DNA of 64,000 nt from Coriobacteriia bacterium (GTDB lineage: Bacteria > Actinomycetota > Coriobacteriia > Anaerosomatales > SLCP01): positions 1,666 through 65,665 of the forward strand of contig SKMN01000048.1 of the NCBI GenBank assembly GCA_007121015.1, written 5' to 3'. The first letter of the stretch is position 1, and each line of letters opens with the position of its first letter. The translations under genes were made by a program, and so were the position numbers. The notes under the pieces were generated by a model. That model ran no database searches. It saw only the letters and a list, made by a program, of their open reading frames with translations, and was not told where the DNA came from. Of the stretch, positions 3,773 through 63,998 are shown one piece after another.

Positions 3773-3776
3773 GCGA

Positions 3777-18907: not shown

Positions 18908-18918
18908 GGGGCCGGACG

Positions 18919-22017: not shown

Positions 22018-22725
22018 ATGGGCCTTGCCATCGTCACAGGCGGCTCGCGTGGTCTGGGGGGCGCACTCTGCGACCTCTATCGCGAACAGGGCTGGAGGGT
22101 CGTGGAGTTCTCCCGATCCGCGCCGCACCCTTTCAGCGTCGAGCTGGATCTTTCGGATGTCCGCAAGGTGACCGAGGTGTTCACCCGAGAGTTCGAGTCG
22201 TTGGCCGGGCTCGATGTCTCGGAGGTCGTGGCCGTGAGTAATGCCTCGCTGCTCGGTCCTGTCGGCCCGGTGGAGCGCTCGACGCCCGAGGATATCATCG
22301 GCCATCTTCACGCCAACGTCGTTTCCGCGATCCTGTTCGCCCGGGCGTTCGCCGGGGCGTTCCAGGACCACACCTGCCCCAAGACGTTCGTGAACATCTC
22401 GAGCGGAGCGGCGAGCCGGGGGCTTGCCGGCTGGTCCCTGTACTGCGCTAGCAAAGCGGCGCTCGAGAACTACGTCCGTGCCGTCGCCCTGGAACAGGAG
22501 GACCGTCCACATCCTATCCGGGCCATCAGCGTCAACCCCGGCGTGATGGACACGGTCATGCAAGAGGAGGTCCGCACCTCACGTCCGGAGGACTTTCCCG
22601 AGGTAGAGCGGTACGACCGTTTGCATCGAGAAGGCCAGCTCGCCGCTCCGTCGACGACAGCGTCACGCGTCGTCGAGCTCGTCGAATCGCGTCCGCGTCC
22701 GGGAGAGGTCTACTCGGCGCAGTGA
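22018..22725 (+). CDS. Short-chain dehydrogenase/reductase (sepiapterin-reductase-like SDR)
   Basis: It has TGGSRGLG, NISSGAA and the YCASKAAL (YxxxK) catalytic motif. The RBS is GGAAGGAG. Confidence 0.85.
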   Translation: MGLAIVTGGSRGLGGALCDLYREQGWRVVEFSRSAPHPFSVELDLSDVRKVTEVFTREFESLAGLDVSEVVAVSNASLLGPVGPVERSTPEDIIGHLHANVVSAILFARAFAGAFQDHTCPKTFVNISSGAASRGLAGWSLYCASKAALENYVRAVALEQEDRPHPIRAISVNPGVMDTVMQEEVRTSRPEDFPEVERYDRLHREGQLAAPSTTASRVVELVESRPRPGEVYSAQ

Positions 22726-22810
22726 TCCCGCGTGCCTGAGGTCCGCCTCGGCGGGTAGGTTCAGTTGTGTCGCAAGGTTGCGTCGCGTCCGGGAAGTGAG
22801 GAGGGTCCGC

Positions 22811-39734: not shown

Positions 39735-39783
39735 GGTGAGCGAGCGCCGCGCGATCGGCGAGGGGTGAGTCGGAGGTATACGG

Positions 39784-45025: not shown

Positions 45026-45038
45026 GTGCGACCTCCTC

Positions 45039-46562: not shown

Positions 46563-46565
46563 CCC

Positions 46566-48047
46566 CTACATCCCGAACGCCTGCGCGACGGCGGTCCGAG
46601 CGATCGACAGCGGCATGCCCGGCAGGTCGCTTACGAGGCCGAGCAGTATCACGAGGACGGCGCAGACGAGTGTCGGGTAGAGCAGCGACGGGCGGGCCTC
46701 GCCCAGCGTCGGTTCCTCGGACACCGGCTTGAAGAAGGCGAGATAGAGCATCGGGAACCAGTACGCGGCGTTCAGCAGCGCGCTCGCGGCCATGACGAGT
46801 GCTACCCACCACATCCCGGAGTCGAACCCGCCGACCGACATATGCCACTTGCTGATGAAGCCCGCAAGCAGCGGCATCCCCGTGAAGCCGAGCGCCGCCA
46901 CCCCGAAGGCGCCCATCGTCGCGGGCATCCGCCGTCCGATGCCGCTCATCTCACTGATGTTCGTCTTGCCGGTGGTCCGCTGTATCGCGCCGGCGGCGAA
47001 GAACATGGTCACCTTCTGCACCGCCTGGTTCGCGATGTGGACGACGGCCGCGACCGCTGCCCAGGGATTGAGTAGTGCGATGCCGAGAAGCACGTACGAG
47101 AGCTGGCTGACGGTCGAGTACGCGAGTCTTCGCTTGAGGTTGTCTTGCAGCAAGGCCATCACCGATGCGGCGATGATGGTGAATGCGGCGAGATAGGCCA
47201 GGGCGTCCGGGAGCCAGGTCTGTCGCAAGAGCTCGACGCCGAAGACATCGTGCACGGTGCGCACCACGCCGAACGCCCCTGCCTTGACGACCGCGACCGC
47301 GTGAAGTAGCGCGCTGACGGGTGTGGGCGCGACCATCGCTCGTGGCAGCCAGCCGTGGAGCGGCATGATCGCCGCCTTCACGCCGAACCCGAGCGTCAGC
47401 ATGACGAAGAGTATCGCAAGCACCGCGGGTGTCGTGTCTGGCGGCACGATGCCGTTGTGGCCGAACGCGAGGACGCCGTCCGACACGACGTAGGTCATCG
47501 CTATGCCGAGGAGTATCACGCCGCCGCCGGTGAGGGTGTAGGTGAAGTACGTGCGCCCGGCTCTCAGCGCCTCCGGCGTCTCGTCGTGGACCACGAGGGG
47601 GTAGGCGCTGATGGTGAGGACCTCGTAGAAGATGAAGAGGGTGAGCAGGTTCTCGGCGAGAGCCAGGGCGACCGTAGCGGAGACGCATAAGGCGAAGAAA
47701 CCGAAGAAGCGGCCCAGTGACCGCTCGCCCTTCATGTAGCCGATCGAATACACGGTCGCCACGACCCACAGCAGTGACGACACGGTCGCGAACGCCATCC
47801 CGAGGGCATCGGCACGGAACCCTATGCCGATGCCCGGCGCGAACTCGGCAAAACGGAAGGTGTAGGCGACGCCTCCCACGGTACCGGGAAGCATGGAGGC
47901 AACGATGATGAACTTGAGGAGCGCGGCGCTCATGCTCCAGAAGCGCCGCCAGCCCGCTCTGCTCCCGCCGATGAAGACGAGCAGTGCGCATACGAAGGAG
48001 ACCATCGGCGCGAGAGCCGGACGTATGTCCCACACCTCGACGGGCAT
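46566..48047 (-). CDS. MrpD/NuoM/N-like antiporter-type subunit (second copy)
   Basis: It has IFYEVLTISAY, HGWLPRAMVAPTPVSALLHAVAVVKAG and HIANQAVQKVTMFFAAG. Confidence 0.85.
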   Translation of the reverse strand: MPVEVWDIRPALAPMVSFVCALLVFIGGSRAGWRRFWSMSAALLKFIIVASMLPGTVGGVAYTFRFAEFAPGIGIGFRADALGMAFATVSSLLWVVATVYSIGYMKGERSLGRFFGFFALCVSATVALALAENLLTLFIFYEVLTISAYPLVVHDETPEALRAGRTYFTYTLTGGGVILLGIAMTYVVSDGVLAFGHNGIVPPDTTPAVLAILFVMLTLGFGVKAAIMPLHGWLPRAMVAPTPVSALLHAVAVVKAGAFGVVRTVHDVFGVELLRQTWLPDALAYLAAFTIIAASVMALLQDNLKRRLAYSTVSQLSYVLLGIALLNPWAAVAAVVHIANQAVQKVTMFFAAGAIQRTTGKTNISEMSGIGRRMPATMGAFGVAALGFTGMPLLAGFISKWHMSVGGFDSGMWWVALVMAASALLNAAYWFPMLYLAFFKPVSEEPTLGEARPSLLYPTLVCAVLVILLGLVSDLPGMPLSIARTAVAQAFGM

Positions 48048-49535
48048 CTAGCCTCCCCCCAGAAGCCGCATCACCCCGGGAAGGGCGATGCCGATCGGCA
48101 CCTGGGCGATGAGGCCCAGCGCCAGTGACGCACCCGAAAGAAGGACCACGGGGGCGAGCATATCGAGGGGCGGATCGACCGCTCTCTCGACCTCCTCGTG
48201 CACGGCGGGACGGAAGTAGAACGCGTTGACGATCCGGAGGTAGTAGATGAGCATCACGAGTGCACTGAAGACGAGCGTCGCGGCCAGGAGCGGACGGGCT
48301 GCGGCCACCGCTCCGACCGCCAGATACCACTTCGTCACGAATCCCGCAGTGGGCGGGACGCCGACGACGGATATCACGGCGACGGAGAGGGCACCGACGG
48401 TGATGGGCATGCGCCGTCCTATCCCGCGGAGGTCCGACACCGTGCGATACCCCGTCCGAAAGGTCAGTGCGCCGAGGGCGAGGAACAGCGCCGCCTTGAT
48501 GACCGCGTGATTGAAGATGTGTATCGATGCACCGGTGAGCCCGCTCTCGTTGAATAATCCCAGTCCGACGGCGATGTAGCCGATGTTGGAAACGGTCGAG
48601 TAGGCCAGCATGAGCTTGATGTCGTCTTGGATGAGTGCGAGGACCGCGCCGAACACGATCGCTATGGCGCCAAGGGTCGAAAGTCCCATGTTGAACGTGG
48701 GCAGATCGACGCCGCCGGCTCCCTGGAAGATATCGTAGGTCCGGATCAGGCCCACGATCCCCATCTTGACCACGAGTCCGGACAGGATCGCGCTCACAGG
48801 ACTTGGCGCGGCGGCGTGCGCGTCGGGTAGCCACAGGTGGAGTGGGAAGACGGCAGCTTTGGTCATGAAGCCGAGGGCGAGCGCCCCGAATGCAAGCACG
48901 ACTGGACGGTGTGGCACGCCGTCCGCGAGGCGATACGCCATATCGGCCATGTTGAGCGTTCCCGTCAGCTGGTAGAGCAGGCCGATCGAGAAGAGCACGA
49001 GCAGCGACGAGAACGCACCCATGACGAGGTACCTGAACGACGCCGCGGCCGCGACCTTCTGCTTGCCGTACGCGACCAGCGCGTAGGCCGACAGCGAGAA
49101 CAGCTCCATGAACACGAAGAGGTTGAAGAGGTCGCCGGTGAACGAGAAGCCGAGGAGACCCCCGAGGTTGATCAGCAAGAGCGCGTCGTAGGGGCCTCGG
49201 CGCGCCGCTTCGACCGCGTGGCGCGAGTACCGGACGCCGTAGAAGACCACCAGGGCGAACACAGGGGCGGCGAGTCCGACGAGGGCCCCGAACTGGTCTG
49301 CCCTCAGCTCGATCCCCCACGGAGCCAGCCACCCTCCGAGGTGGTGGGAGAAGGGGCCGACGTGCGAGACCCTCACGCTCACCATGAATGCGCCGGCACA
49401 CGTCACCGTCGTCACGAGTAGGGTCCACGCGGTCGCCACCCGGTCCGAGATCCGATGGAGTGGAAGGCACAGGGCTGCGCCTGTCACCGGGAGCGCAAGC
49501 ACGCTCACGAGGAGCTGTCCCGGCCACTCGCTCAT
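48048..49535 (-). CDS. MrpD/NuoM/N-like antiporter-type subunit (first copy)
   Basis: It has FMELFSLSAY, HLWLPDAHAAAPSPVSAILSGLVVKMG and HIFNHAVIKAALFLALG. The start overlaps the mnhC stop (ATGA). Confidence 0.88.
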   Translation of the reverse strand: MSEWPGQLLVSVLALPVTGAALCLPLHRISDRVATAWTLLVTTVTCAGAFMVSVRVSHVGPFSHHLGGWLAPWGIELRADQFGALVGLAAPVFALVVFYGVRYSRHAVEAARRGPYDALLLINLGGLLGFSFTGDLFNLFVFMELFSLSAYALVAYGKQKVAAAASFRYLVMGAFSSLLVLFSIGLLYQLTGTLNMADMAYRLADGVPHRPVVLAFGALALGFMTKAAVFPLHLWLPDAHAAAPSPVSAILSGLVVKMGIVGLIRTYDIFQGAGGVDLPTFNMGLSTLGAIAIVFGAVLALIQDDIKLMLAYSTVSNIGYIAVGLGLFNESGLTGASIHIFNHAVIKAALFLALGALTFRTGYRTVSDLRGIGRRMPITVGALSVAVISVVGVPPTAGFVTKWYLAVGAVAAARPLLAATLVFSALVMLIYYLRIVNAFYFRPAVHEEVERAVDPPLDMLAPVVLLSGASLALGLIAQVPIGIALPGVMRLLGGG

Positions 49536-49882
49536 CGGCCGCCCCGCAACTCATCGGCTTCGATGGTGCCATGCTCGGCGTGTATCCGCGTGACGAGGCT
49601 GAGCGCGAGTGCCGTGACGCTGACCGCGACGACGATGCCCACGAGCACGATCGTCTGGGAGACCGGGTCGTGGTAGGGGGACGTCGTGTCCTGCGTCACG
49701 AGTGGCGGACTGCCGTCTCGGGCAAGACCGCCCGTGATGATGAATATGAAGACGGCCGTCTCCATGATGTTGAGTCCGATGATCTTCTTGATGAGGTTGC
49801 TCTTCGCCACGAGGGCGTAGAGGCCTATCAGGAAAAGGATGATGGCGAGGACGTAGTCGGCCCTGTCGAGCAACATCGTCAT
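49532..49882 (-). CDS. mnhC: Na+/H+ antiporter subunit C (MnhC/MrpC, NuoK-like)
   Basis: It has LAIILFLIGLYALVAKSNLIKKIIGLNIMETAVFIFII. The internal ATG overlaps the mnhB stop. Confidence 0.85.
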   Translation of the reverse strand: MTMLLDRADYVLAIILFLIGLYALVAKSNLIKKIIGLNIMETAVFIFIITGGLARDGSPPLVTQDTTSPYHDPVSQTIVLVGIVVAVSVTALALSLVTRIHAEHGTIEADELRGGR

Positions 49883-50589
49883 GCGCGTCCCTCCATCGAC
49901 CAGAACACCGATGCGATGATGGCCGCGCTTGCCGCGCCGATTCCCGCCTCGATGAACAGCATCAGCCACTCTCGCGCCCACGGGAGGGCGGCCGTAGAGG
50001 GGTACGCGAACACTCCGGCGCCAGTGAGGGGTCCGATGGCTGCGAAGAGGAGGAACACCACCATCGCCGCCCCGTGCAGCCACGCCGCGACGTGCTCGGG
50101 CAGGAACTCTCGGGCATGGTCCGAGCCCACGCCGAGAGAGAGGGATATCGCCGCAGCACCAAGGATCACCCCACCCTGGAACGCACCGCCCGGGCCGGCA
50201 TGGCCGGAAAGGACCAGGTAGGTTCCGAAGATCACGATCGCCGGCACCGTGCGGCCGACGACGTAGCCGGTCACCTGTCCAGGGGCGGCCCGGTCGTGGT
50301 GTCCGCCGGAGCCGGACCGGTCCCGCGGGGGGAGGACGGCGAGCACACCGGCGAGTGCGGTGAAGATGACCGCCGCCTCGCCAAAGGTGTCGAAGAGGCG
50401 GTACTCGAGAAGCACGGCCTTGACGATGTTCGTGGTACCGACCTCTTCTGCCCCCTGTTCGAGGTAGTGCTGTGAGACGTGCGAGCGGAACGGCATCTCG
50501 GGAGAGCCCGGGGCGGGCAGTTCGACGACTGCTGACAGCAGCATGACCGCCAGCAACGCGAGCAGGAGGAGTGTCGCAAGCCGTCTCAT
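49879..50589 (-). CDS. mnhB: MnhB/MrpB-domain subunit (MbhE/F-like)
   Basis: It has NIVKAVLLEYRLFDTFGEAAVIF and GHAGPGGAFQGGVILGAA. The ATG overlaps the upstream stop (ATGA). Confidence 0.8.
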   Translation of the reverse strand: MRRLATLLLLALLAVMLLSAVVELPAPGSPEMPFRSHVSQHYLEQGAEEVGTTNIVKAVLLEYRLFDTFGEAAVIFTALAGVLAVLPPRDRSGSGGHHDRAAPGQVTGYVVGRTVPAIVIFGTYLVLSGHAGPGGAFQGGVILGAAAISLSLGVGSDHAREFLPEHVAAWLHGAAMVVFLLFAAIGPLTGAGVFAYPSTAALPWAREWLMLFIEAGIGAASAAIIASVFWSMEGRA

Positions 50590-50828
50590 CGTTCTTCTCG
50601 CTCGGTCCGTTCGATGGCGAGTAGGAACAAGACAGTGGTCACGCCGGCCCCCACGGCCGCCTCGGCCAAGGCCACGTCGGGTGCGCCTCGGAATTGCCAT
50701 AAGACCGAGAGCACGAGTCCGTAGACGGCGAACACGACCACGGATGTCGTGAGGGCCTTCGCGCTCACCGCGAACACGGCTGTCGTGATCAACAGGACGA
50801 ACAGGAGCACATCGAGAGCCTCGGTCAC
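50586..50828 (-). CDS. DUF4040 protein (MrpA C-terminal-region / MbhD-like subunit)
   Basis: It has GAPDVALAEAAVGAGVTTVLFLLAI. Its GTG overlaps the mnhG stop (GTGA). Confidence 0.72.
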   Translation of the reverse strand: MTEALDVLLFVLLITTAVFAVSAKALTTSVVVFAVYGLVLSVLWQFRGAPDVALAEAAVGAGVTTVLFLLAIERTEREER

Positions 50829-51142
50829 TGGTCTCGCCTCCAGGGTACGATGCCGATGCGATACGACGCGCGTGCCAGTGCATGGCCGGATGTCGGGCTG
50901 TAGACCGCGATGAGCGCAAGCAGCGCAACGAGCTTGAGCGTCTGTGGATCGATCCCTTGTCTGAGTATGAGCGCCACGATGAGCAGTCCCGCGCCGAGCG
51001 TGTCGCACTTCGTTGCGGCGTGGGTCCTACAGTAGAAGTCCGGGAAGCGAAGGAGCCCGACCGTGCCGGCCACGAAGAAGAACGTGCCGAGGCACGCGAG
51101 TACCAGGGACATCATCTCGACGATCACGGAGACATCCGTCAT
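50825..51142 (-). CDS. mnhG: Na+/H+ antiporter subunit G (MnhG/MrpG)
   Basis: It has GTVGLLRFPDFYCRTHAATKCDTLGAGL. Confidence 0.85.
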   Translation of the reverse strand: MTDVSVIVEMMSLVLACLGTFFFVAGTVGLLRFPDFYCRTHAATKCDTLGAGLLIVALILRQGIDPQTLKLVALLALIAVYSPTSGHALARASYRIGIVPWRRDQ

Positions 51143-51414
51143 CGCGGGTTCCCTTTCAATCGTCCGGTCTCCAGCATCCGTGAGGCCGCCAGGGCGATCA
51201 CGTAGTTCAGCAGTCCGTAGACGATCGCCACGTCCGCGAACATCTCGCGGTCGAACGCGTGAGCGATGAGCGCGAGCAGCACGAGGGTCTTGGTGCCCAC
51301 CACGTTCACCGCGAGGAGCCTGTCAGGCAGCGTGGGACCGAGCGCCACTCGCAGCAGACAGAGGAGTGCATTCGCAAGCAGGATGACTGCGAGCACCTGT
51401 AGTACGGGGAACAT
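51139..51414 (-). CDS. mnhF: Na+/H+ antiporter subunit F (MnhF/MrpF)
   Basis: It has LLCLLRVALGPTLPDRLLAVNVVGTKTLVLLAL...DVAIVYGLLNYV. Confidence 0.85.
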   Translation of the reverse strand: MFPVLQVLAVILLANALLCLLRVALGPTLPDRLLAVNVVGTKTLVLLALIAHAFDREMFADVAIVYGLLNYVIALAASRMLETGRLKGNPR

Positions 51415-51417
51415 CGC

Positions 51418-51909
51418 TCACTCTTCCAGGGCTTGTGCGATCCGGTATTCGATGCGTCCTTCTTCGAGGGCGTCGGCGAAACGCTCGGACAAGCAGTGCA
51501 CGAGAACGGTGCCGTCGTCTGAGTCGAGTGCCAAGGTACCCGGGGAGAGGGTGATAGTGTTGACGTACAGTGCCTGCGAGAGCGTGCGCGACAGGCCGGT
51601 GTCGCGCTCCACCACTCGGGGGGCGAACGACGGGTGTGGCCGCAGCGCGTCCCACGCCACCTGCACGCCCCCGGTGACGGTGCTCCATACGAGTGCCGCA
51701 GCGTGTCCGAGCAGTCCGAGAGCTCGGTGTGGCGTCAGCCGGGGTGCGCGCTCCGCCACCGTCAGGCGCGGGACCCACCGGGCGAGCGCCGCGCATACGA
51801 CGAGTCCGATGGTCACCTGTTCGATACTCGGGGTACCTACCAGCAACAGCCAGAAGGCCATGAGGACCGCCGATGTCCGGGCAAACCTCGCTCCGTTCAC
51901 GTCGCACAC
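51418..51909 (-). CDS. mnhE: Na+/H+ antiporter subunit E (MnhE/MrpE)
   Basis: It has FWLLLVGTPSIEQVTIGLVV...LYVNTITLSPGTLALDSDD. The start is uncertain because an internal Met is possible. Confidence 0.8.
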   Translation of the reverse strand: MCDVNGARFARTSAVLMAFWLLLVGTPSIEQVTIGLVVCAALARWVPRLTVAERAPRLTPHRALGLLGHAAALVWSTVTGGVQVAWDALRPHPSFAPRVVERDTGLSRTLSQALYVNTITLSPGTLALDSDDGTVLVHCLSERFADALEEGRIEYRIAQALEE

Positions 51910-51953
51910 TCCTTCCTGTCATCGTGACAGCCCCAACAGCCCCGATCGTCGGC

Positions 51954-55046: not shown

Positions 55047-56036
55047 CTACTCCGGTGCGCTGTGGCGTGCGCCGTCCCGACGCTTACTCCGGAACCAGAG
55101 CATCGCGATGCCGATCACACCCACGAGTACTCCGGCCGACGTAAGGTAGCCCATCCACGCCTCCAGCGGTCCGAGGAGCGCATCGGTGGACTCGGCGGTG
55201 CTGGCCGAGGATGCCGAGAACGCCGAACGCATCAGTGAATCCATCCGGGCGGCTTCCGCGTGCGCGATCCTCAAGGCCACTTGACTGCCGGCGACGAGCG
55301 CGAGGCCTCCTCCCATCAGGACGTATCCTCTCACCGGGGCCACGATGAGGGCGAGTAGGAATGCGGCGGCGGCGCCCCACGCAAGGTACGGGCGAGCAGC
55401 CTGGAGGTCGCCAAGGGGCGCAAGACGATCCGCAATGGGACCGGCGTCGAACACCTCGACCTGTATCTGCCGGACGGGATCGGGGACGAAGTTCACGATG
55501 ATGGCGTGCACGAGCGGCTCCTCGACCTCCTCGGCCAGCAGGTCGATGTAGGGACCGAGCGTCACCTGCATCGCGGCATCGTCGGCCACGCTGTCCGGCT
55601 GAGCGGAGCGGACCGCGTTCGCCCAACCCCGGTGCCATGAACGCATCTCTGCGAGCCACAGTTCGCCGAACGTGTCGGTCGCTACCGCTGCGGTGACGGT
55701 CTGGCGAACGAGCGTCTCGAACTCGGCGACCATCTCGTCGGAGATGAGTTGTTCGGCACCGGGAAGGACGGAGCGGGCGAGTTCCCGGAGATCGAAGAGT
55801 TCGAGAAGCGTGTCCGATATCCTGTCGGACGCCTCGTCCCGTACCGCGTCATCATCGACGAGCGGTTCCATAGCTGCGACGAACGTGTCGGTGTCGAGCA
55901 GGACGGAGTCGCTCCAGTACGCGATGACGACGAGGCAGACCGCGACCGCCGCTGCGACCGTGAGGAGTGCGGCGACGGCTGTCCGCATGTAGTCCGCGAC
56001 ACCCCGCGTCCGTCCATCCGTTCGCGGTGTGCTCAT
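55047..56036 (-). CDS. Hypothetical membrane protein
   Basis: This 329-aa ORF has one N-terminal and about three C-terminal TM helices and good GC3 bias. No family was recognised. Confidence 0.5.
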   Translation of the reverse strand: MSTPRTDGRTRGVADYMRTAVAALLTVAAAVAVCLVVIAYWSDSVLLDTDTFVAAMEPLVDDDAVRDEASDRISDTLLELFDLRELARSVLPGAEQLISDEMVAEFETLVRQTVTAAVATDTFGELWLAEMRSWHRGWANAVRSAQPDSVADDAAMQVTLGPYIDLLAEEVEEPLVHAIIVNFVPDPVRQIQVEVFDAGPIADRLAPLGDLQAARPYLAWGAAAAFLLALIVAPVRGYVLMGGGLALVAGSQVALRIAHAEAARMDSLMRSAFSASSASTAESTDALLGPLEAWMGYLTSAGVLVGVIGIAMLWFRSKRRDGARHSAPE

Positions 56037-56371
56037 CGGTCTGCCCGCGCACGCGTCGTGATGATGGCCGCCGCTACCCCGGCGGGGAGCATGGCTGCTG
56101 CGATGCTGGAACTGCGGGTCATCGGGGCGCGAGTGACGACCGAGCGTACGGCCACGGTAGCGGAGTGCACGTGGACCACCTTTCTGCCGGGTGACTATGA
56201 CGTCTCTACCCGTTCAGGCGGCCTTGCGAGCGTGGTGGGCTTGGCCCCCTTCATGCTTGAGTGCTCCGGGTCGATCGTTGCCGTTCGTCACGTGCATTCG
56301 AGTCGGGGCTTGTTCGCGCCGATTCAGAAATGAGAAGCGGAATCTCTGATAGTGAAGGGCACCACGACGAT

Positions 56372-59300
56372 ATGATCGGCTACACGATGCCCTCGAGGCA
56401 CATCTCGTTCCTGATCGCCGTGCTCGTAGCGGTCTTGTTCGCAGGAGTCACTCCCGCACGGGCTACGACAGATGACGGGGTGCGTACCTGGGGGCCGTCG
56501 CCCTTCCCCGACGCCGATCCCCCAGCACACCAGCTTATCGTGCGCTTCGTCCCGCACCTCGAGTTCAACTTCGCGGCTCAAGGCGTGGCACATGTACGCG
56601 CCGGCACCACGCGTGTCCGCGGATTGTGGGGTATGCCTGGCTACGATCTCGTCTCGGTGCCGAAGGGTTCCTCGGCAGAGCAAGCCATGCGGCGCTATCT
56701 TGCAGACCCGTCCGTGTCTTACGTCGAGCCAGACCATGCCGTGCGCGCCTGGGTGCTTCCAGACGACCCGCTCTTCGGGCAGCAGTGGGCGCTCAGGAAC
56801 ACCGGCCAGAGTGGCGGAACGCCCGGGGCTGATATCGGCGCTGCGGACGCATGGACAGTGACCACCGGCGGGCCGGACGTGCTGGTAGCGGTCGTGGACA
56901 CCGGCGTCGACTACGAGCACCCCGACCTCGCACCGAACATGTGGAGCAAGCTCGGCTGGAACTTCGCCGAGAGGAACTCCGATCCGATGGATAACCACGG
57001 CCACGGTACGCACGTGGCCGGGACCGTCGCTGCTGCGGGAAACGACAGCTACGGCGTGGCAGGCGTAGCGTGGGAAGCGCAGATCATGGCGCTCAAGGCG
57101 CTCGGCGATGACGGACGCGGGTGGACGTCGGACATCATCGACGCTGTCAACTATGCGAGCTACTATGGCGCCGACATCATCAACATGTCGCTCGGGGGCG
57201 GTTCTTACTCGCAGGCGTTCTACGATGCCATCGAGGCATCCGAGGCGCTCATCGTCGCCGCCGCGGGCAACAACGGAAGAGACAACGACTCCTCGCCGAG
57301 TTATCCGGCCTCCTACGACCTCGACAACATCATCGCCGTCGCCGCCACCGACCGTGACGACGCACTTGCGAGCTGGTCGAACTACGGGGCCGAGAGCGTC
57401 GACCTCGGCGCTCCCGGCGTGGCGATCCTCAGCACGGTCCCGGGACACACGTACGAGGCGACCACGGCGTTCGCCGATCCGTTCGACACCCTGGACGCAT
57501 GGAGCACCAACTCCTACTGGTACCATCCCTGGACGCTGAGCTCGACGCGGTACGTGAGTCCTCCACATTCGGCGGGCCATGCGCCGAGCGGCGGGTACGT
57601 CGCCAACGAGCAGTCATGGATCTTCACCACCGACTACGTCTCGCTCCTCGACGCGGATCGCATAGCCGTGCGTTTCATGGCGCGCCTCGACACGGTCTCA
57701 AGCGATGATTGGTTGGTCCTCGCGGCGAAGCCGGAAGGCGCTCTCGGGTGGACTGCTCTGGCGATCATCGCCGGTCCGACCGGGGAGTTCAGGAGCTACG
57801 GACTAGAGACGACGGCGATGGCCGGGACGCGGGCCCAGTTCGCGTTCGTGTTCGTGAGCGGAGACGCAGGTGGGGGCGCAGGTGTGTGGGTGGATGACGT
57901 CGAGATCGATTCACTGGTACGGGACAGCGACTCCGACTACAGCGATGCGCACGGCTACATGAGCGGGACATCGATGGCCGCTCCTCACGTCGCGGGCGTG
58001 GCTGCGCTACTCAAGGCGTACGCTCCCGGCCTCGACGCCATCGGCCTCAAGGGGGCGATCCTCGACACGGTCGCGCCCCTCCCGGGTCTCGATGGCACAA
58101 CGCTCACCGGCGGCAGGCTCGACGCGGGTGCGGCGGTCGCCTCGGTAAAGCCTCCCAAAAGCGCTCCGGTGGCGCGAGATGACTCCTACACGGCCGAGGC
58201 CGGCTTCGAGCTCACGGTTGTGGCACCCGGCGTGCTCGCCAACGATACCGATGCCGACGGCGACGAACTCGTCGCGGAGCCGATCACTCATCCGGCCGAG
58301 GGCAAGCTCTCATTGCACGCCGACGGTTCGTTCGCGTACATGCCGCCACACGGGTTCATCGGCCAGGAGACGTTCACCTACCAGGCATACGACGGCGTGG
58401 AATACTCGGATCCAGCGACGGTCACCATCACGGTGGCCGACACCATCGATCCGATGAGCGTTGCCGTACTCGACCCCTCACCGGCTGATGGCGCGCAAGG
58501 ATGGTTCGTGAGCGTCCCTGCGATCAGCATCGAGGCCACCGACACCGGTTCGGGCGTCGATCACGTCGAGTGGAGATTCGGTGACGACGAGTGGGTGAAG
58601 GATCCCGTGGTGACAGGCGTCGTGGACGGGAAGCACGTGCTGCTCTATCGCTCGATAGACATAGCGGGCAACGTCGAGGAGGCTCGGCGCATCGAGTTGG
58701 CGGTGGACACGAGTCCGCCAGTGACCATGTCGGATGTGGCCGAGGAGGTATATGCCGCCCCCACGACGATATCCCTCGTCGCCACCGACACGGTCTCGGG
58801 GGTTGCGGCTACGTACTACTCACTCGATGGCAGCGAGGCCACGACGTACACGACCCCCATCGACATCGCGGAACCTGGTGAGTACACGCTCTCCTTCAGG
58901 AGTATCGACGTTGCGGGGAATACCGAGGAGACGCAGACGGTCGGGTTCACGCTCCTGCCGCCCGTCATCGAGATCGCGGGCGCTACGCGTTTCGACACTG
59001 CGGTGGAAGCGTCACGGGAGGCGTTTCCGGACGGTGCGGATGTCGTCATCATCGCGACAGGGACAGACTGGCCTGATGCTCTCGGCGGTTCGGCCCTTGC
59101 GGGCGTGCTCGACGGGCCGGTCCTGCTCGTGCAACATGATTCGGTGCCGGCCTCGGTGCGCGCGGAGATCGAACGTCTCGGTGCGAGCCGGGCGGTCATC
59201 GTCGGTGGTAAGGCGGCTGTCGGCACTGCGGTGTCGGATGCGTTCGGTGCTGCCGGGTTGGATGTCGAGCGTATCGCAGGGGCATCTCGCTACGAGACCG

Positions 59301-59893
59301 CCGACGAGGTCGCATCGTACGTGATCGAGGCGATCGGGGAGTCCTTCGACGGTACCGCGCTGGTGGCGACCGGAGCAGATTTCCCGGATGCGCTTGCAGC
59401 AGCCCCGCTTGCCGTCGCCAATGGTTGGCCGCTCTACCTGGCACACCCTCAGCACGGGCTACTTCCTGCGACCAGGGTCGCGATGGAGGACATCGACCGC
59501 GCGATCATCCTCGGTGGCACCGAGGTGGTGGACTCGAGCACCCAGACCGCTCTTGAAACGACATACGGGGAGATGAACGTCGTGCGCCTTGCAGGCGCGA
59601 CTCGATACGAGACTGCCGTCGAGGTCGCCGAATATGGTGTCGGTAGCGCGGGTCTGGGATGGAATCGCGTCGGGATCACAACCGGTGAGCTGTTCCCGGA
59701 TGCGCTCGCCGGCGGAGCACTGCAAGGAAGGGCGAGGAGCGTCATGCTTCTCACGGGTACGGATTCACTCCCCGCCGAGACGCGAGCCGCACTCACTGCC
59801 AACAAGGAAAGCATCTCCACCGTCACCTACTTCGGTGGGGACCGCGCTGTGAGTCAGGACGTTCGCAGAGCAGTTGCGCGAGCCCTCCACTAG
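56372..59893 (+). CDS. Cell-wall-anchored S8 (subtilisin-family) serine peptidase with Ig-like modules and three C-terminal CWB2 repeats
   Basis: The catalytic triad motifs are VVDTGVDYEHPDL, HGTHVAGTVAA and SGTSMAAPHVAGVAALL. It also has a signal peptide, a cadherin/Big_9-like module (VLANDTDADGDEL...FTYQAYDG) and two repeated Ig-like modules (..YRSIDIAGNVEE / ..FRSIDVAGNTEE). CWB2 x3 follows (ATRFDTA.., ASRYETA.., ATRYETA..). The alternative start is 56387. Confidence 0.9.
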   Translation: MIGYTMPSRHISFLIAVLVAVLFAGVTPARATTDDGVRTWGPSPFPDADPPAHQLIVRFVPHLEFNFAAQGVAHVRAGTTRVRGLWGMPGYDLVSVPKGSSAEQAMRRYLADPSVSYVEPDHAVRAWVLPDDPLFGQQWALRNTGQSGGTPGADIGAADAWTVTTGGPDVLVAVVDTGVDYEHPDLAPNMWSKLGWNFAERNSDPMDNHGHGTHVAGTVAAAGNDSYGVAGVAWEAQIMALKALGDDGRGWTSDIIDAVNYASYYGADIINMSLGGGSYSQAFYDAIEASEALIVAAAGNNGRDNDSSPSYPASYDLDNIIAVAATDRDDALASWSNYGAESVDLGAPGVAILSTVPGHTYEATTAFADPFDTLDAWSTNSYWYHPWTLSSTRYVSPPHSAGHAPSGGYVANEQSWIFTTDYVSLLDADRIAVRFMARLDTVSSDDWLVLAAKPEGALGWTALAIIAGPTGEFRSYGLETTAMAGTRAQFAFVFVSGDAGGGAGVWVDDVEIDSLVRDSDSDYSDAHGYMSGTSMAAPHVAGVAALLKAYAPGLDAIGLKGAILDTVAPLPGLDGTTLTGGRLDAGAAVASVKPPKSAPVARDDSYTAEAGFELTVVAPGVLANDTDADGDELVAEPITHPAEGKLSLHADGSFAYMPPHGFIGQETFTYQAYDGVEYSDPATVTITVADTIDPMSVAVLDPSPADGAQGWFVSVPAISIEATDTGSGVDHVEWRFGDDEWVKDPVVTGVVDGKHVLLYRSIDIAGNVEEARRIELAVDTSPPVTMSDVAEEVYAAPTTISLVATDTVSGVAATYYSLDGSEATTYTTPIDIAEPGEYTLSFRSIDVAGNTEETQTVGFTLLPPVIEIAGATRFDTAVEASREAFPDGADVVIIATGTDWPDALGGSALAGVLDGPVLLVQHDSVPASVRAEIERLGASRAVIVGGKAAVGTAVSDAFGAAGLDVERIAGASRYETADEVASYVIEAIGESFDGTALVATGADFPDALAAAPLAVANGWPLYLAHPQHGLLPATRVAMEDIDRAIILGGTEVVDSSTQTALETTYGEMNVVRLAGATRYETAVEVAEYGVGSAGLGWNRVGITTGELFPDALAGGALQGRARSVMLLTGTDSLPAETRAALTANKESISTVTYFGGDRAVSQDVRRAVARALH

Positions 59894-59907: not shown

Positions 59908-60516
59908 CTAGCGATCCTCGTCCAGGCCGCCGGGTCCGTGGCAGTCGAGACACGTCTCTACCGCGAAGTCCCGGTGGTTGTCGGGTAGCGTGCTCCTCGG
60001 TTCGACATGGTGACAGTAGTCGCAGTCCTCGAAGATGCCGTCGGTCGCGTGTGGGATGGGGTCTGTGACGCTGCGCGACAGGCCGGCAGGCGGAGGCTGA
60101 CGGTTGCGGAATCTCTCATCGACCGGGTGACAGAGGAGGCATTCGCCGGATTCGTAGCGCAGGTGGCTTTCCGGGACGCCGTGGTCGCGAGCGGGCTCGC
60201 CGTGGCAGAGCGGGCAGCGCTCGTCGCCCATCGCGACGGAGTGGGGCACCAACACACGTATGGCCTGCCGATGGCACGACCCGCACGTGTGAACCGCGTA
60301 GTGCCGGTGCGTGATGGGGATCGAGTCCAGTTCGAGGTTGTGGCAATCGAGGCAGGGATCGGTGCGCTCCTCGGGCGGATGGGGGTTGTCGGGAGCAGGG
60401 ATCACCTCGGCGTCGGAAGGACTCAGGGCGGTGGTCGCCCACGCGAAGAGTCCCCCGGCGCCCACGAACAGCCCTACGATGATCACGACCACTGTCGACA
60501 CGATGCGGTGGTTCAT
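59908..60516 (-). CDS. Signal-anchored hexaheme c-type cytochrome
   Basis: It has one N-terminal TM helix followed by six CxxCH motifs: CLDCH, CGSCH, CPLCH, CLLCH, CDYCH and CLDCH. The RBS is AGGGGGG, and it starts 10 nt after the upstream stop. Confidence 0.85.
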   Translation of the reverse strand: MNHRIVSTVVVIIVGLFVGAGGLFAWATTALSPSDAEVIPAPDNPHPPEERTDPCLDCHNLELDSIPITHRHYAVHTCGSCHRQAIRVLVPHSVAMGDERCPLCHGEPARDHGVPESHLRYESGECLLCHPVDERFRNRQPPPAGLSRSVTDPIPHATDGIFEDCDYCHHVEPRSTLPDNHRDFAVETCLDCHGPGGLDEDR

Positions 60517-60526
60517 GGGCCCCCCT

Positions 60527-61867
60527 TTACACCATGTCGAATCGTTCGGTGTGGATGCGGTCTGACGGTACGCCGATCTCCGGGAGCGCCTTTTCCATCG
60601 CGTCCATCAACGGTCCGGGGCCGCAGATGAAGTACTGGAAACGACGGTAGAGGGCGGGAGGGAGGTAGCGCAGGAGCATTTCCGGGGTGACGAACCCGCT
60701 CTCGCCCTCCCAGCCTTCGTGCGGATAGAGAAGGACGGTCACGAGCGTGAGGGACGGCATGCGTTTGGCCATGACAGCGAGCTCTTCTCGGAAGGTGAGG
60801 TCGTCGTAGTCGTTGGCCGCGTGGAACAGGAACACCGGCCGGACGTCTTCGCGGGTCTCGAGGGCCTGGAGCATCGAGTACAGCGGGGTGATGCCTACGC
60901 CGCCGCCGATGAGCACGAAGCCGGCGCCCTCTTCTCGGTCGATCGTGAACACGCCGTGAGGGCCATCGACCCAGGCGGTCGCCCCCCGGGTGACGTGCGG
61001 GACCACATCGGTCGACCAGTCGCCGAGTTGCTTGATGGTGAACGAGACCTGACCTTCCTCGCTCGGTATGTCGCCGTTGGAGGAGAACGATATGGGATGG
61101 CTGTCGGTGCTGAACGGACTGCGCCCGAACCCGATCCAGGCGAACTGGCCAGGTGCGAAGCGGAACCCATCGTGGCCGACGGGGCGCAACACGATCGTGT
61201 GCGATTGCCCGTGCTCAGGACGGTTCTCGACGACCTCCCACGGCTTATTCGTGAGGGAGAGCGGCCGGAACACCCGGTAGCGCAGGAACATGCCGATGAA
61301 GAAGACGAGGTAGACCGCCCACAGTCCTCGCATAGCGGGGAGCGCGGCGAAGCGGCCGATGCCGAGCGCGTGGACGGCCGCGAATGCGATGAGAGCGACG
61401 GAGAAGATGCCGTGGGTCGTGTGCCAGATCTCGTATGGCAAGCGCAGTTGCCGACGGTAGACCGAGAGCCCCACGACGAGCGCGGCGAGCACCAATGCCG
61501 CAGCTCCGAGATTCACCGGCCATGGACTCGATGTCGAAGGAGCGAGCGAGCGCGCGGTGTACGCGCGGTCAGCGACCAACAGTGCGGGATGTGCAATGGC
61601 GAACGCTACCGCGGCGATGCCGATCTGACGGTGGAACTGGAGTAGAGAGTCGAGGCCGAACGCGCCGGCGACACCTTTCAAACGAGCGACGAGCATGAGT
61701 TCGGTCGCCATGAGAGCGAGCGCGATGTAGCCCGCGGCGGCCGAGAGATAGATTAGCGGACTCGCCGCGTGGTCCGGTTCGAAGAACACCGCGCCGACCA
61801 CGAGCGGGAAGAGGATGACCGTCAGGTACAAGCCGAACCAGAACACGCCGCGTATGATCAGGCGCAT
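60527..61867 (-). CDS. NOX/ferric-reductase-type flavocytochrome b (ferric-reductase TM domain plus FAD- and NAD(P)H-binding domains)
   Basis: It has six TM helices with His pairs HRQIGIAAVAFAIAH and HGIFSVALIAFAAVH. The FAD motif is HPISFSS, the NAD(P)H motif is VLIGGGVGITP, and FICGPGPLMD lies near the C-terminus. Confidence 0.85.
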   Translation of the reverse strand: MRLIIRGVFWFGLYLTVILFPLVVGAVFFEPDHAASPLIYLSAAAGYIALALMATELMLVARLKGVAGAFGLDSLLQFHRQIGIAAVAFAIAHPALLVADRAYTARSLAPSTSSPWPVNLGAAALVLAALVVGLSVYRRQLRLPYEIWHTTHGIFSVALIAFAAVHALGIGRFAALPAMRGLWAVYLVFFIGMFLRYRVFRPLSLTNKPWEVVENRPEHGQSHTIVLRPVGHDGFRFAPGQFAWIGFGRSPFSTDSHPISFSSNGDIPSEEGQVSFTIKQLGDWSTDVVPHVTRGATAWVDGPHGVFTIDREEGAGFVLIGGGVGITPLYSMLQALETREDVRPVFLFHAANDYDDLTFREELAVMAKRMPSLTLVTVLLYPHEGWEGESGFVTPEMLLRYLPPALYRRFQYFICGPGPLMDAMEKALPEIGVPSDRIHTERFDMV

Positions 61868-62020: not shown

Positions 62021-62095
62021 GGGCGATTAACTCAGCGGGAGAGTGCCTCCCTTACAAGGAGGAAGTCGGCGGTTCAAATCCGTCATCGCCCACCA
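62021..62095 (+). tRNA. tRNA-Val (anticodon TAC), CCA-encoded
   Basis: The cloverleaf was folded by hand. The acceptor stem is GGGCGAT/ATCGCCC, the D stem ACTC/GAGT and the anticodon stem CCTCC/GGAGG with loop CTTACAA. The T stem is GGCGG/CCGTC with loop TTCAAAT, and the 3' end is ACCA. Confidence 0.9.
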
Positions 62096-62159: not shown

Positions 62160-63998
62160 CTATCTTGTCGCGTTCCACTTGTAGCTCATATTGGCCCTGA
62201 AAGCAGTGGAGTTCTCGTCATGCGACGCGGTTCCAACCACGGTGCTGGCCGACGTGAAGGTGCCACTGACCTGTTTTCTTCCGCCGACAGACGATATGGT
62301 TCCCCACGTATGGGAGAACGCGCCGTTGGTGATCGGGATGTCTTGGTACACGTACGCGACCATGGTGACGTTGGAGTAGGGATACTTGACGATCATCGAT
62401 GCACCTTGCGGCAGCGTGGACCCCTCTCTCGTGATCATGTTATTCCTGACGTTCAGCGTCACCGCCTCGTAGGTGGTTCCATCTATGAAGCCGTGCCAGA
62501 CGCCGTTCTGGACGCTGCCTGGCGGGCTAGGAGGGCTCCACGAGCCGGCTAGCGCTGCAATCACGTCGTTGCGTACACTTTGCGTGAGTGCTCCGGTGCC
62601 ACCGAAGAACGTCACAGTACTGATGGAAGAACGCTTGGTGTAGAGCGTCTCCCCCGTTTCGTGACACAGGATGTTCGACGGCGTGAGCAGCATGACGCTC
62701 CCGACCTTTCCTTGCAGGACACCTCCGGCGAGTGCATCGGGGTAGTTCATGCCGGTTGCGATCCCCGCGCGATTCCAGCCGAGGCCAGCACTGTTCACTC
62801 CGTATGCTGCCACTTTGCAGGCGGTGTCGTAGCGGTTGCTGCCTGCGAGCCGCGATACGCTGAAGGCGCCTGAGAGGTCGGATTGCACTGCGCTTGAGAC
62901 CGCGGCGGTGCCTCCGAGGATGATGACCTCGTTGACCCCCGCCATCGCGGTCTTCGTCGCTCCTGAGAGTCCGGTCGTAGGGTTGGCGAGGTACAAGGGC
63001 CACCCGTTGGCTGCGGCAAGCGGCGCCGCGGCGAGCGCATCGGGGAAGTTCCCCCCGGTGGAGACGAACGCTCTGCCGTCGAATGAGGCTCCGAGTTCGG
63101 TGATCACGCGACGCGCGACCCTGTTGGCGGTGTCGTACCGGTCGGACCCGGCTATGCGGTCGACAGACCCGACCTCAGACCTGAGGGCGCTCTCCACACC
63201 GGCGCTCACCGCCGAGTAGCCACCGAGTATCACGGCCCGGTGAGCTCCGAGGCGGCGGATCTCTGTGCGCACGGCGGCAGGCAACGAACCGGGTTCGGTG
63301 AGCAGGATCGGCCCATCGAGCACGCCTGCAAGAGCAGAGCCACCGAGCGCATCAGGCCAGTTCATTCCCGTCGCGATCACGACCGTGGACGCCGTACCGG
63401 GATAGGCGAGCTTGGACGCCTCGATCGCCGTTTCGTAACGCGTCCCGCCAGCTACCTCGAGAACCGGCGGAAGCGGCGGCGCAACGGTCACATCGACATC
63501 GGTCGTGTTCGAATAGGCTCTGCCGTCGTGGGCGCGATACGTGAACGTGTCCACCCCATGGAACCCTGCGTTCGGCGTGTAAGTGAAGCCGCCGTTCGCG
63601 TTAAGGGTCACCGTGCCGTTCGAGGGGTCACCTACCTTCGATGCCGTTAGCGTGTCATCCTCGGCATCCGTGTCATTGGACAGTACTCCCGGAGCGGGAA
63701 CGATGAGCGGGGTCTCGTATGCGGTCTGGTAGCTGTCCGGATTGGCGATCGGGGGCGTGTTAGGAGTCGCCACCTCTGCAGTGACCCGGACGTTGTCGAC
63801 ATAGGCGCCTTCGCCGGTGACGCTCTCGTCGCTCACGAAGATGAACGCGATCCAGACGGTAGGTTCGCCGGTGAAGTCGACCGCGCCGTCACCGTGGACG
63901 TCGGCGAGGTCGATCTCGACCGCATACCAGCCATCCGAGTTGCCCGTCCACCCTCGCGTTGCGAAAGAGGATCCGTCTGCGGAAACCCCGGCCAACAA
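62160..63998 (-). CDS. Surface protein (5'-truncated by the window edge) with a Big_9/cadherin-like module, three CWB2 repeats and an unassigned C-terminal domain of about 150 aa
   Basis: It has VLSNDTDAEDDTL...FTYRAHDG and CWB2 repeats (GGTRYETA.., GSDRYDTA.., GSNRYDTA..). The ORF is open to the end of the window. Confidence 0.8.
   Translation of the reverse strand: MLAGVSADGSSFATRGWTGNSDGWYAVEIDLADVHGDGAVDFTGEPTVWIAFIFVSDESVTGEGAYVDNVRVTAEVATPNTPPIANPDSYQTAYETPLIVPAPGVLSNDTDAEDDTLTASKVGDPSNGTVTLNANGGFTYTPNAGFHGVDTFTYRAHDGRAYSNTTDVDVTVAPPLPPVLEVAGGTRYETAIEASKLAYPGTASTVVIATGMNWPDALGGSALAGVLDGPILLTEPGSLPAAVRTEIRRLGAHRAVILGGYSAVSAGVESALRSEVGSVDRIAGSDRYDTANRVARRVITELGASFDGRAFVSTGGNFPDALAAAPLAAANGWPLYLANPTTGLSGATKTAMAGVNEVIILGGTAAVSSAVQSDLSGAFSVSRLAGSNRYDTACKVAAYGVNSAGLGWNRAGIATGMNYPDALAGGVLQGKVGSVMLLTPSNILCHETGETLYTKRSSISTVTFFGGTGALTQSVRNDVIAALAGSWSPPSPPGSVQNGVWHGFIDGTTYEAVTLNVRNNMITREGSTLPQGASMIVKYPYSNVTMVAYVYQDIPITNGAFSHTWGTISSVGGRKQVSGTFTSASTVVGTASHDENSTAFRANMSYKWNATR

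Follow-up and report, generated by a model that had tools for sequence, protein, structure and literature searches.

We describe a pair of adjacent minus-strand genes in a 64,000-nucleotide (nt) stretch of DNA from a Coriobacteriia bacterium (assembly GCA_007121015.1, contig SKMN01000048.1, positions 1,666–65,665 of the forward strand), which we refer to as the window. The first gene encodes a flavocytochrome b of the NADPH oxidase/ferric reductase (NOX/FRE) type, called the reductase below, and the second encodes a cytochrome c with six heme-binding motifs behind a single N-terminal transmembrane (TM) helix. We consider it likely that the two gene products are subunits of a single membrane enzyme, acting as an NAD(P)H:extracytoplasmic-acceptor oxidoreductase that would send electrons outward. 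This reading draws on the gene pair itself and its motifs, on how the reductase folds, on the topology predicted for both proteins, on the conserved linkage of the genes, and on the finding that the cytochrome's TM helix is homologous to a small subunit found in related loci. An earlier, sequence-only reading of the window had proposed such an outward conduit; the interpretation agrees with the available computational tests and is supported by them, while the function itself is what we infer. The two genes and their parts are as follows.

60527–61867, minus strand: reductase gene, 446 amino acids (aa); coordinates include the TAA stop codon.
61268–61867, minus strand: transmembrane heme-b domain of the reductase, residues 1–200, with six TM helices.
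60530–61255, minus strand: cytoplasmic dehydrogenase domain of the reductase, residues 205–446, with HPISF (H257), GGGVGITP (321–328), and CGP (415–417).
60517–60526, minus strand: intergenic spacer AGGGGGGCCC, 10 nt, with a Shine–Dalgarno-like run of G before the cytochrome ATG.
59908–60516, minus strand: cytochrome gene, 202 aa; coordinates include the TAG stop codon.
60433–60516, minus strand: N-terminal TM helix of the cytochrome, residues 1–28, MNHRIVSTVVVIIVGLFVGAGGLFAWAT, Kyte–Doolittle peak 2.52.
60265–60405, minus strand: di-heme module 1, residues 38–84, PH46-x8-C55xxCH ... TH70-x7-C78xxCH.
60121–60267, minus strand: di-heme module 2, residues 84–132, PH92-x8-C101xxCH ... SH118-x7-C126xxCH, with residues invariant or nearly invariant in the alignment.
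59932–60075, minus strand: di-heme module 3, residues 148–195, PH156-x8-C165xxCH ... NH181-x7-C189xxCH.

The spacing of 10 nt reported earlier is exact: the junction reads GTG TAA-AGGGGGGCCC-ATG from the reductase stop to the cytochrome start. What the sequence-only reading called translational linkage corresponds here to this close spacing. The third-position G+C content of both open reading frames (ORFs) is 0.81–0.83, as in the real genes of the window, which has 65% G+C overall.

Profile and structure comparisons confirm that the upstream protein is a NOX/FRE-type flavocytochrome b in architecture and fold, an assignment that does not imply O2 chemistry. Domain searches, which the sequence-only reading had proposed as a check, recovered both a ferric reductase domain and a flavin adenine dinucleotide (FAD)/NAD domain: PF01794 (Ferric_reduct) matched residues 45–162 with 56.9 bits (cut-off 28), and PF00175 (NAD_binding_1) matched residues 319–425 with 70.5 bits (cut-off 22). 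The NOX-specific families PF08022 (FAD_binding_8; 20.1 bits, cut-off 22) and PF08030 (NAD_binding_6; 15.6 bits, cut-off 22.2) stayed just under their thresholds, and no NCBIfam model came near its cut-off. The earlier claim of a full NOX/ferric reductase architecture therefore stands for the PF01794 domain, the six TM helices, the bis-His pairs, and the fold shared with SpNOX, the NOX-like flavocytochrome b of Streptococcus pneumoniae, and it needs correction for the dehydrogenase part, whose sequence is nearest to generic types of FNR or cytochrome b5 reductase. The motifs HPISFSS, GGGVGITP, and CGP that it had named are all present.

Hydropathy analysis gives six TM segments, with the loops rich in lysine and arginine lying on the side of the dehydrogenase domain, as expected from the positive-inside rule, and with short outer loops of about 7, 18, and 4 residues. 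Since the FAD/NAD domain must face the cytoplasm, the six helices place the N-terminus of the reductase inside and H93 and H166 near the outer face. The candidate heme-b ligand pairs H79/H93 in TM3 and H152/H166 in TM5, both spaced as Hx13H, are invariant in 45 homologs with 52–90% identity, as are H257, G322, G323, G325, P328, C415, G416, and P417; V324, I326, and T327 of the GGGVGITP motif are nearly invariant in the same set. By analogy, H79 and H152 can be assigned to the inner heme and H93 and H166 to the outer heme, the corresponding ligands in SpNOX being H69/H129 and H83/H142 (PMC11564096). The reductase passes the NOX filters for NADPH binding (GVGITP, residues 323–328) and for bis-His pairs, and its FAD motif HPISFSS misses the NOX motif H[PSA]F[TS][LIMV] (Hajjar et al. 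2017) by one residue, with HPISF carrying Ile instead of Phe.

The AlphaFold2 model of the reductase (mean predicted local distance difference test score, pLDDT, 82.4; predicted TM-score 0.73) has six long helices, after which come a beta-barrel and a Rossmann-like domain. A Foldseek comparison with the PDB placed the cryo-EM structure of SpNOX (8qt6) at the top with E = 3e-22, a TM-score of 0.75 normalized to the query and 0.83 to the target, and about 448 aligned columns at 17% identity; full-length matches to DUOX1, NOX5, and NOX2 came next. At the level of sequence, the dehydrogenase domain is closest in the PDB to methane monooxygenase reductase, NADH-cytochrome b5 reductase, NqrF, and flavohemoglobin, and the same search matched the SpNOX dehydrogenase domain at E = 2e-7 and DUOX1 and NOX5 at about 1e-4. 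In alignment, the segment FLFHAANDYDDLTFREEL falls on an acidic stretch of the NADH type in cytochrome b5 reductase, which gives a weak hint that NADH may be the electron donor. Relatives of the reductase number at least 1477 at E up to 1e-10.

The downstream protein has the layout proposed for it earlier, one N-terminal TM anchor followed by six CxxCH motifs. The single TM segment spans approximately residues 5–27 after the N-terminus MNHR, and the motifs start at residues 55, 78, 101, 126, 165, and 189, all six being conserved among 26 homologs. In the same set, the candidate distal ligands H46, H70, H92, and H156 show no variation and at least 90% of the sequences keep H118 and H181, so that the conserved histidines can serve, in number, as ligands for six putative bis-His hemes. 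Internal repeat analysis showed that the heme domain is a triplication of a di-heme module of about 47 residues with the pattern [P-H-x8-CxxCH]-x10-12-[x-H-x7-CxxCH], giving one heme per approximately 24–29 residues. In a six-frame translation of the 64-kb window, this is the only ORF with two or more CxxCH motifs. The 175 residues after the TM helix are acidic (14 K+R vs. 31 D+E), and prediction places the heme domain outside the cytoplasm and the N-terminus inside. The topology check on hydropathy and loop charges thus has the outcome anticipated by the sequence-only reading, with the heme-c domain on the outer side of the membrane and the dehydrogenase domain on the cytoplasmic side. In the AlphaFold2 model of the cytochrome, residues 1–30 reach a pLDDT of 90–98 and the remainder about 40–55 (mean 53), with confidence limited to the TM helix.

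The Pfam scores of the hexaheme protein for known multiheme families are just below threshold (PF22113, 24.6 bits with cut-off 30; PF14537, 23.6 with cut-off 25; PF14522, 22.8 with cut-off 24.8); the best-matching stretch, to MtrC/MtrF domain II/IV and c3_2, lies at residues 163–197, and the c7 family is also sub-threshold. A two-heme relative passes Paired_CXXCH_1 with 21.4 bits against a cut-off of 20.6. The search of PDB sequences with the cytochrome profile returned marginal matches of the c7, STC, and NrfB type only. The homologs form 53 clusters of about 170–220 aa (most about 200 aa) with 43–82% identity, and those that carry names are mostly called "hypothetical protein", with metagenome-assembled genome (MAG) labels of Coriobacteriia, Actinobacteria, or similar. 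A profile search of 1.84 billion representative proteins gave 577 matches at E up to 1e-3, which include full-length relatives of about 200 aa, proteins of 87–100 aa that cover residues 1–85 only, and very large cytochromes built from the same module (up to 1967 aa with 18 matched stretches). For the hexaheme gene of the window compared with that of locus L005, the ratio of nonsynonymous to synonymous differences per site (pN/pS) is 0.21; pairs with indels gave meaningless values.

The two genes stay together throughout the clade. Scanning one genome per GTDB species with the cytochrome alignment yielded 26 loci; the MAG titles are nearly all Coriobacteriia, Actinomycetota, or the like, with Eubacteriales in two cases. 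In 25 of the 26 loci the reductase, recognized by tblastn at 62–91% identity, ends 8–15 nt before the cytochrome, and the co-occurrence survey suggested earlier accordingly found the pair in all 25 evaluable Coriobacteriia species genomes, those in which the upstream DNA can be read, with variable flanks. The 26th locus (L030) is a partial, second copy of the cytochrome, and its genome has the pair too; in L007 the cytochrome start is masked by N. The pair was found in further metagenome loci as well. We conclude that the pairing of reductase and cytochrome is not due to chance. Across loci the reductase is the more conserved partner (73–91% identity vs. 57–82% for the cytochrome).

The neighboring genes vary by subclade and include citrate synthase, an SPFH protein, tRNA deaminase, radical SAM enzymes of the futalosine pathway, acetate kinase, and others. 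A conserved third gene was looked for and rejected, as none is kept next to the pair in the 25 genomes; with unconserved flanks, the pair travels as a self-contained unit.

Several individual loci deserve mention on their own account. In the metagenome locus L040 (4837–6259), an insertion of about 1.4 kb with an opposite-strand ORF splits the reductase from the hexaheme gene; it resembles an insertion sequence. The hexaheme gene of L033 (6262–6975), from a long-read MAG, is frameshifted, which may reflect an assembly error or a pseudogene, and the same assembly record (ERZ25039503) carries a second reductase with a two-heme partner (L035). In L033 and L034, a divergent gene for a TetR-family regulator lies directly upstream of the reductase and may be a local regulator; the window has none. 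Additional multiheme cytochrome ORFs occur within a few kb in L026 (15100–16359, minus strand) and L030 (111–2018, plus strand), with 11 and 7 CxxCH motifs, close to the pair or to the second cytochrome copy.

Beyond the hexaheme clade, the reductase is followed by a family of single-TM partners that differ in heme number. Among four distant relatives, one at 61% identity has a 199-aa partner with five CxxCH motifs and one Cx3CH, one at 63% has a frameshifted hexaheme gene (from a long-read MAG), and those at 52–53% have partners of 96 and 87 aa with two CxxCH motifs and the same MNHR[IV] N-terminus, encoded 10–11 nt downstream. A homolog search with a two-heme partner as the query, limited by its word index, returned one near-identical match. 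A further 80 loci (42–79% identity) came from scanning metagenomes with the reductase alignment, for a total of 108 non-duplicate evaluable loci. An ORF with an N-terminal TM helix starts between −20 and +50 nt from the reductase stop in 101 of these 108, compared with 6.1% of 5500 random positions in the same loci, and three of the seven exceptions carry a TM ORF slightly farther from the reductase.

The partners fall into size classes that match the modules of the cytochrome. Heme-less partners occur in 43 loci and have 25–33 aa as called (most 29–33), for example, MHHVIVTRVVVFIACLLALGCLLFAFVVKG; in L061, L053, L085, L087, L091, L110, L115, and some 35 more loci the ORF lies 9–25 nt past the reductase stop and is unannotated. 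These micropeptides follow the pattern M[HRN]H[VIL][IV]V[TK]R...LFA.... One-heme partners (13 loci, 56–58 aa) correspond to the second half of module 1, two-heme partners (6 loci) to module 1, and the four-heme (1 locus, 164 aa) and six-heme partners (35 loci) to two and three modules, respectively. Of the remaining loci, one is frameshifted and two (L034 and L047) have five hemes plus a Cx3CH; in these two, which belong to one subclade with a reductase about 61% identical to that of the window, the sixth motif reads CRF[IV]CH. The names of cluster members say almost nothing about the taxonomy of the one-heme, two-heme, and micropeptide clades. All partner classes share one register: M1, H3 (91%), [RV]4, [IV]5, V6 (85%), V10 (83%), F24 (89%), and A25 (72%).

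Judged by this register, the TM helix of the cytochrome is homologous to a micro-subunit of about 30 aa that follows most relatives of the reductase. Heme-less forms end just past the helix, which indicates that the helix itself is the retained functional element; on the same grounds, the helix of the cytochrome would be a signal anchor that docks on the reductase rather than a signal peptide that is cleaved off, despite AWA at positions 24–26. The single-TM ORF of about 30 aa is probably a micro-subunit that gene annotation pipelines have overlooked. Heme number is coherent within reductase sequence clusters: a cluster of 34 is entirely six-heme or degenerate six-heme, a cluster of 14 comprises thirteen one-heme loci and one two-heme locus, and all 36 loci in four further clusters have heme-less partners. 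That heme number follows the reductase cluster argues for co-inheritance of the two genes.

Other clades combine the reductase with cytochrome c in a different arrangement. In L090, L095, L101, and L075, a gene for a pentaheme lipoprotein cytochrome (about 350 aa) comes about 100–130 nt after the reductase and a heme-less micropeptide; in L112 these two are followed by a lipoprotein class-I-like monoheme cytochrome c, and L107, with a similar ORF, may be a second such case. We regard these separate lipoprotein cytochromes as an independent association with cytochrome c.

We propose that electrons would take the following path. NAD(P)H, possibly NADH, would bind the cytoplasmic C-terminal domain and reduce FAD, from which single electrons would pass to the inner heme b (H79/H152) and on to the outer heme b (H93/H166), crossing the membrane as in NOX; both steps would follow from homology with the solved NOX enzymes. 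The outer heme b would then hand electrons to the first c-heme of the partner, held on the reductase by its conserved N-terminal TM helix, and the six bis-His c-hemes of the three di-heme modules would carry them into the cell-wall space. These two later steps and the physiological role are our inference. Candidate end acceptors are Fe(III) or other metals, humic or quinone compounds, sulfur species, and other cytochromes of the wall. Such a route skips quinones, pumps no protons, and moves negative charge outward, so that, by general bioenergetics, energy would be dissipated and NAD(P)+ regenerated. With no energy conserved, its role would be electron disposal or reductive access to external substrates.

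Work on SpNOX bears directly on the transfer from heme b to heme c. The purified enzyme reduces cytochrome c directly, under anoxic conditions and faster than O2 or Fe(III), and its outer heme is exposed, which its authors read as the sign of a protein acceptor that they do not name (PMC11564096). We also suggest, tentatively and at slightly less than an even chance, a wider picture: many bacterial NOX-like flavocytochromes would be two-subunit enzymes with an unannotated single-TM micro-protein of about 30 aa, whose outer tail would have grown stepwise to carry one, two, four, and finally six c-hemes, and the Coriobacteriia hexaheme form would be a monoderm's quinone-independent, NAD(P)H-driven conduit for extracellular electron transfer and the natural protein acceptor predicted from SpNOX.

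Among known systems, SpNOX (PDB 8qt6, 8qq7) resembles the reductase most closely: one chain comprises six TM helices, with His pairs in TM3 and TM5 for two b-hemes, short outer loops, and a C-terminal FAD/NAD(P)H domain. The two differ in that identity is only 17% in the structural alignment, the dehydrogenase domain here is PF00175, and the FAD motif is HPISF instead of HPF[ST]; moreover, no c-type cytochrome partner has been described for SpNOX, whereas a dedicated cytochrome gene follows the reductase here.

The "MsrQ-like" systems of Actinobacteria (Meheust et al. 2021, eLife 10:e66878) likewise have a PF01794 membrane protein with a C-terminal PF00175 domain, are common in that group, and are predicted from genomics to deliver NAD(P)H electrons to an extracytoplasmic partner. 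Their partner is an FMN-binding protein flavinylated by ApbE, whereas here it is a heme-c protein, and membership in this group was rejected because ApbE and FMN-binding genes were absent from the neighbor annotations of seven loci. The same study reports that flavin and cytochrome modules interchange in other systems and does not describe the present pair (Meheust et al. 2021), which would be the cytochrome c counterpart of an MsrQ-like system. [quoted passage not shown] Membership in MsrPQ was rejected too, as no MsrP-type gene lies nearby and a dehydrogenase domain is present.

MamZ–MamX offers a further parallel, a ferric-reductase-like TM domain (MamZ) thought to work with a single-TM protein bearing tandem minimal c-hemes (MamX); unlike the reductase, MamZ, which is fused to an MFS transporter, lacks an FAD/NAD domain and resides in the magnetosome membrane of Proteobacteria. 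Hemes 1, 3, and 5 of the cytochrome fit PH-X5-9-CX2CH, the scored core of the magnetochrome pattern psi-X5-9-PH-X5-9-CX2CH-psi, and hemes 2, 4, and 6 have no Pro, with T, S, or N before the His and a spacer of 7. There is no magnetochrome match at the profile level and no mam gene nearby, and the pair occurs in MAGs of Coriobacteriia. Porin–cytochrome clusters of iron oxidizers have also been noted to encode a membrane protein with di-heme b and two Hx13H motifs, without a dehydrogenase domain.

Eukaryotic Fre/FRO and NOX enzymes share the same core and move NAD(P)H electrons outward, and some need a small membrane partner (p22phox, DUOXA); DUOX1–DUOXA1 and NOX2 structures are among the fold matches of the reductase. 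These partners differ from the one described here in being unrelated, multi-TM, and heme-free, and the acceptors, O2 or Fe(III) chelates, are reduced directly at the outer heme b. In the Gram-positive metal reducers Thermincola and Carboxydothermus, multiheme c cytochromes of the membrane and wall carry electrons across the monoderm envelope, in chains thought to start at the quinol pool via membrane cytochromes; entry would differ here, with a NOX-type NAD(P)H dehydrogenase in place of quinol oxidation. The sequence-only reading knew of no description of such a pairing, and our full-text searches, which covered open-access papers and bioRxiv, likewise found no account of a NOX/FRD flavocytochrome with a hexaheme or dedicated c cytochrome or with a micropeptide subunit.

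The remaining features of the window are the following.

62021–62095, plus strand: tRNA-Val, the upstream boundary of the pair and the sole Rfam match.
56261–59893, plus strand, and 62160–63998, minus strand: surface proteins on either side of the pair, with cadherin-like/Big_9 domains and three CWB2 repeats.
55047–56036, minus strand: 329-aa membrane protein without a Pfam match.
42452–51918, minus strand: Mrp-type multi-subunit cation/proton antiporter cluster.
39769–41010, plus strand: Na+/H+ exchanger, separate from the Mrp cluster.
24273–25544, minus strand: kynureninase-like enzyme.
22607–24175, plus strand: metallo-beta-lactamase/rhodanese fusion.
15164–16948 and 18748–20565, both plus strand: two L-lactate permease genes with a gamma-glutamyltranspeptidase gene between them.
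3516–5321, plus strand: FAD-dependent aromatic-ring hydroxylase.

The two surface proteins cluster as paralogs, and one of them carries an S8 peptidase domain. The presence of CWB2 cell-wall-binding proteins on both flanks fits a monoderm envelope, the setting assumed earlier for the conduit. The window encodes no other cytochrome, and the pair has no known respiratory complex encoded next to it. Scans for promoters and terminators gave nothing exceeding the expectation from shuffled sequences. The 329-aa membrane protein recurs shortly after the pair in only three other loci (L005, L031, and L001, the last from the same organism). The Mrp cluster and the Na+/H+ exchanger would suit an alkaline saline habitat. 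The aromatic-ring hydroxylase is of a kind that normally requires O2, which would be surprising in a strict anaerobe. Other genes of the window, such as those for glutamine synthetase, an S15 peptidase, and RF3, are ordinary.

The exact cytochrome sequence is present on four public contigs, including SLCG01000133.1 of GCA_007125935.1. Genomes of related species are titled "Coriobacteriia bacterium isolate CSSed...", which we take to be soda-lake sediment genomes, and one (L024) is titled "Anaerosomatales bacterium". To this order of Coriobacteriia belong an obligate Fe(III) reducer, which has 17 multiheme cytochromes, and strains with 17–18 of them; the paper describing them does not mention ferric reductases in its text, and its supplements contain nothing on the pair (PMC9686372).

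Several observations weigh against the proposal that the pair is an outward-directed enzyme. The heme domain is poorly modelled (pLDDT about 40–55) and gives no distance from heme b to heme c. Beside the hexaheme pair there is no conserved acceptor, transporter, or second cytochrome. The WWD motif of CcsA/ResC, a mark of cytochrome c maturation, was absent from the window and from all 117 loci examined; maturation genes have been reported in cultured Anaerosomatales (PMC9686372). Cultured members of the order are absent among the matches, so that no link of the pair to their Fe(III) reduction is established. The pN/pS of the micropeptide ORFs is saturated (pS about 0.59, ratio 0.70) and thus uninformative. 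Finally, the window contains apparently O2-dependent enzymes, such as the aromatic-ring hydroxylase, which keeps O2 among the possible acceptors.

The same two-subunit machine could also serve assimilation, reducing extracellular Fe(III) or another metal for import in the manner of yeast Fre and plant FRO. Seven loci with a reductase and a heme-less micropeptide (L052, L065, L068, L093, L097, L098, and L099) have genes for an ABC ATPase and an ABC-3 (PF00950) permease directly afterward. We take this permease type to be an importer of divalent Zn, Mn, or Fe, which hints that the heme-less relatives may act as assimilatory metal reductases. PF01794+PF00175 "MsrQ-like" genes have also been found beside VIT1 iron transporters and proposed to function in assimilatory iron reduction (Meheust et al.), and SpNOX has a weak ferric reductase activity, although this was judged probably not physiological. 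For the hexaheme pair itself, however, a metal transporter adjoins neither the window's genes nor those of any hexaheme locus examined, and a chain of six hemes exceeds what a reductase of soluble chelates would need. We therefore regard an assimilatory role of the pair as unlikely.

More improbable still is that the pair feeds an extracytoplasmic enzyme encoded elsewhere, such as a repair or detoxifying reductase, with the cytochrome as an adaptor in the style of MsrQ–MsrP. FRD proteins serving protein partners have precedents in MsrQ–MsrP and in the MsrQ-like/FMN-binding systems of Actinobacteria, and the authors of the SpNOX study favored a protein acceptor. Against this, none of the 25 genomes keeps a third gene beside the pair, and MsrP domains, like those of ApbE and FMN-binding proteins, are missing from the neighbor annotations.

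An oxygen-directed NOX, reducing O2 at the cell surface to superoxide or as a means of scavenging with the c-hemes as the site of reaction, would have the chemistry of SpNOX and the eukaryotic NOX enzymes, and the normally O2-requiring enzymes of the window suggest that the organism may meet oxygen. In NOX enzymes, however, O2 reduction takes place at the outer heme b and involves no cytochrome c, and all six c-hemes appear to be bis-His, which leaves no open site for O2. The clade comes from anoxic sediments and the subsurface, and one MAG is labelled Anaerosomatales, whose cultured members are anaerobes. We find this explanation quite improbable.

That the genes are merely neighbors, the cytochrome being an independent quinol-oxidizing anchor protein of the NapC/CymA type, is very improbable and was already disfavored. 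An N-terminal TM helix followed by several c-hemes is superficially like NapC/NirT/NrfH, and there are faint NCBIfam matches to NrfH and DmsE, but the NrfH score is 15.7 bits against a cut-off of 134, both scores lie far under their thresholds, and PF03264 (NapC/NirT) has no match to the hexaheme protein at E up to 10, so that membership in this family was rejected. Independence is also at odds with the tight linkage across more than 100 loci (8–15 nt in the hexaheme genomes), with the homology of the TM helix to heme-less peptides of about 30 aa incapable of a redox role of their own, and with a heme number that tracks the reductase clade. As for inward flow, in which electrons from external donors such as Fe(II) or a cathode would pass the c- and b-hemes to reduce NAD(P)+, a heme chain can in principle run either way, but reduction of NAD(P)+ (about −320 mV) would run uphill and against an inside-negative membrane potential, and we know of no FRD/NOX enzyme that runs inward, so this direction is scarcely credible.

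If the proposed outward-directed enzyme is what the pair encodes, its meaning lies in how familiar parts are joined. A NOX/FRE flavocytochrome b and a bis-His multiheme cytochrome c are each well known, whereas their combination, the shared TM micro-subunit, and the series from zero to six hemes appear to be undescribed. For the question of the natural acceptor of bacterial NOX-like proteins, the locus offers a genetically linked and naturally occurring cytochrome c partner. The series of zero, one, two, four, and six hemes on one TM helix also shows how multiheme chains may be assembled one module at a time.

In Gram-positive bacteria, the known chains for electron export start at the quinone pool or at Ndh2-type enzymes. 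If the proposal is true, the Coriobacteriia pair would provide a much shorter export route, with two proteins leading from NAD(P)H to the exterior of the membrane, which would bear on redox balancing in anoxic sediments and could supply a compact part for bioelectrochemical engineering.

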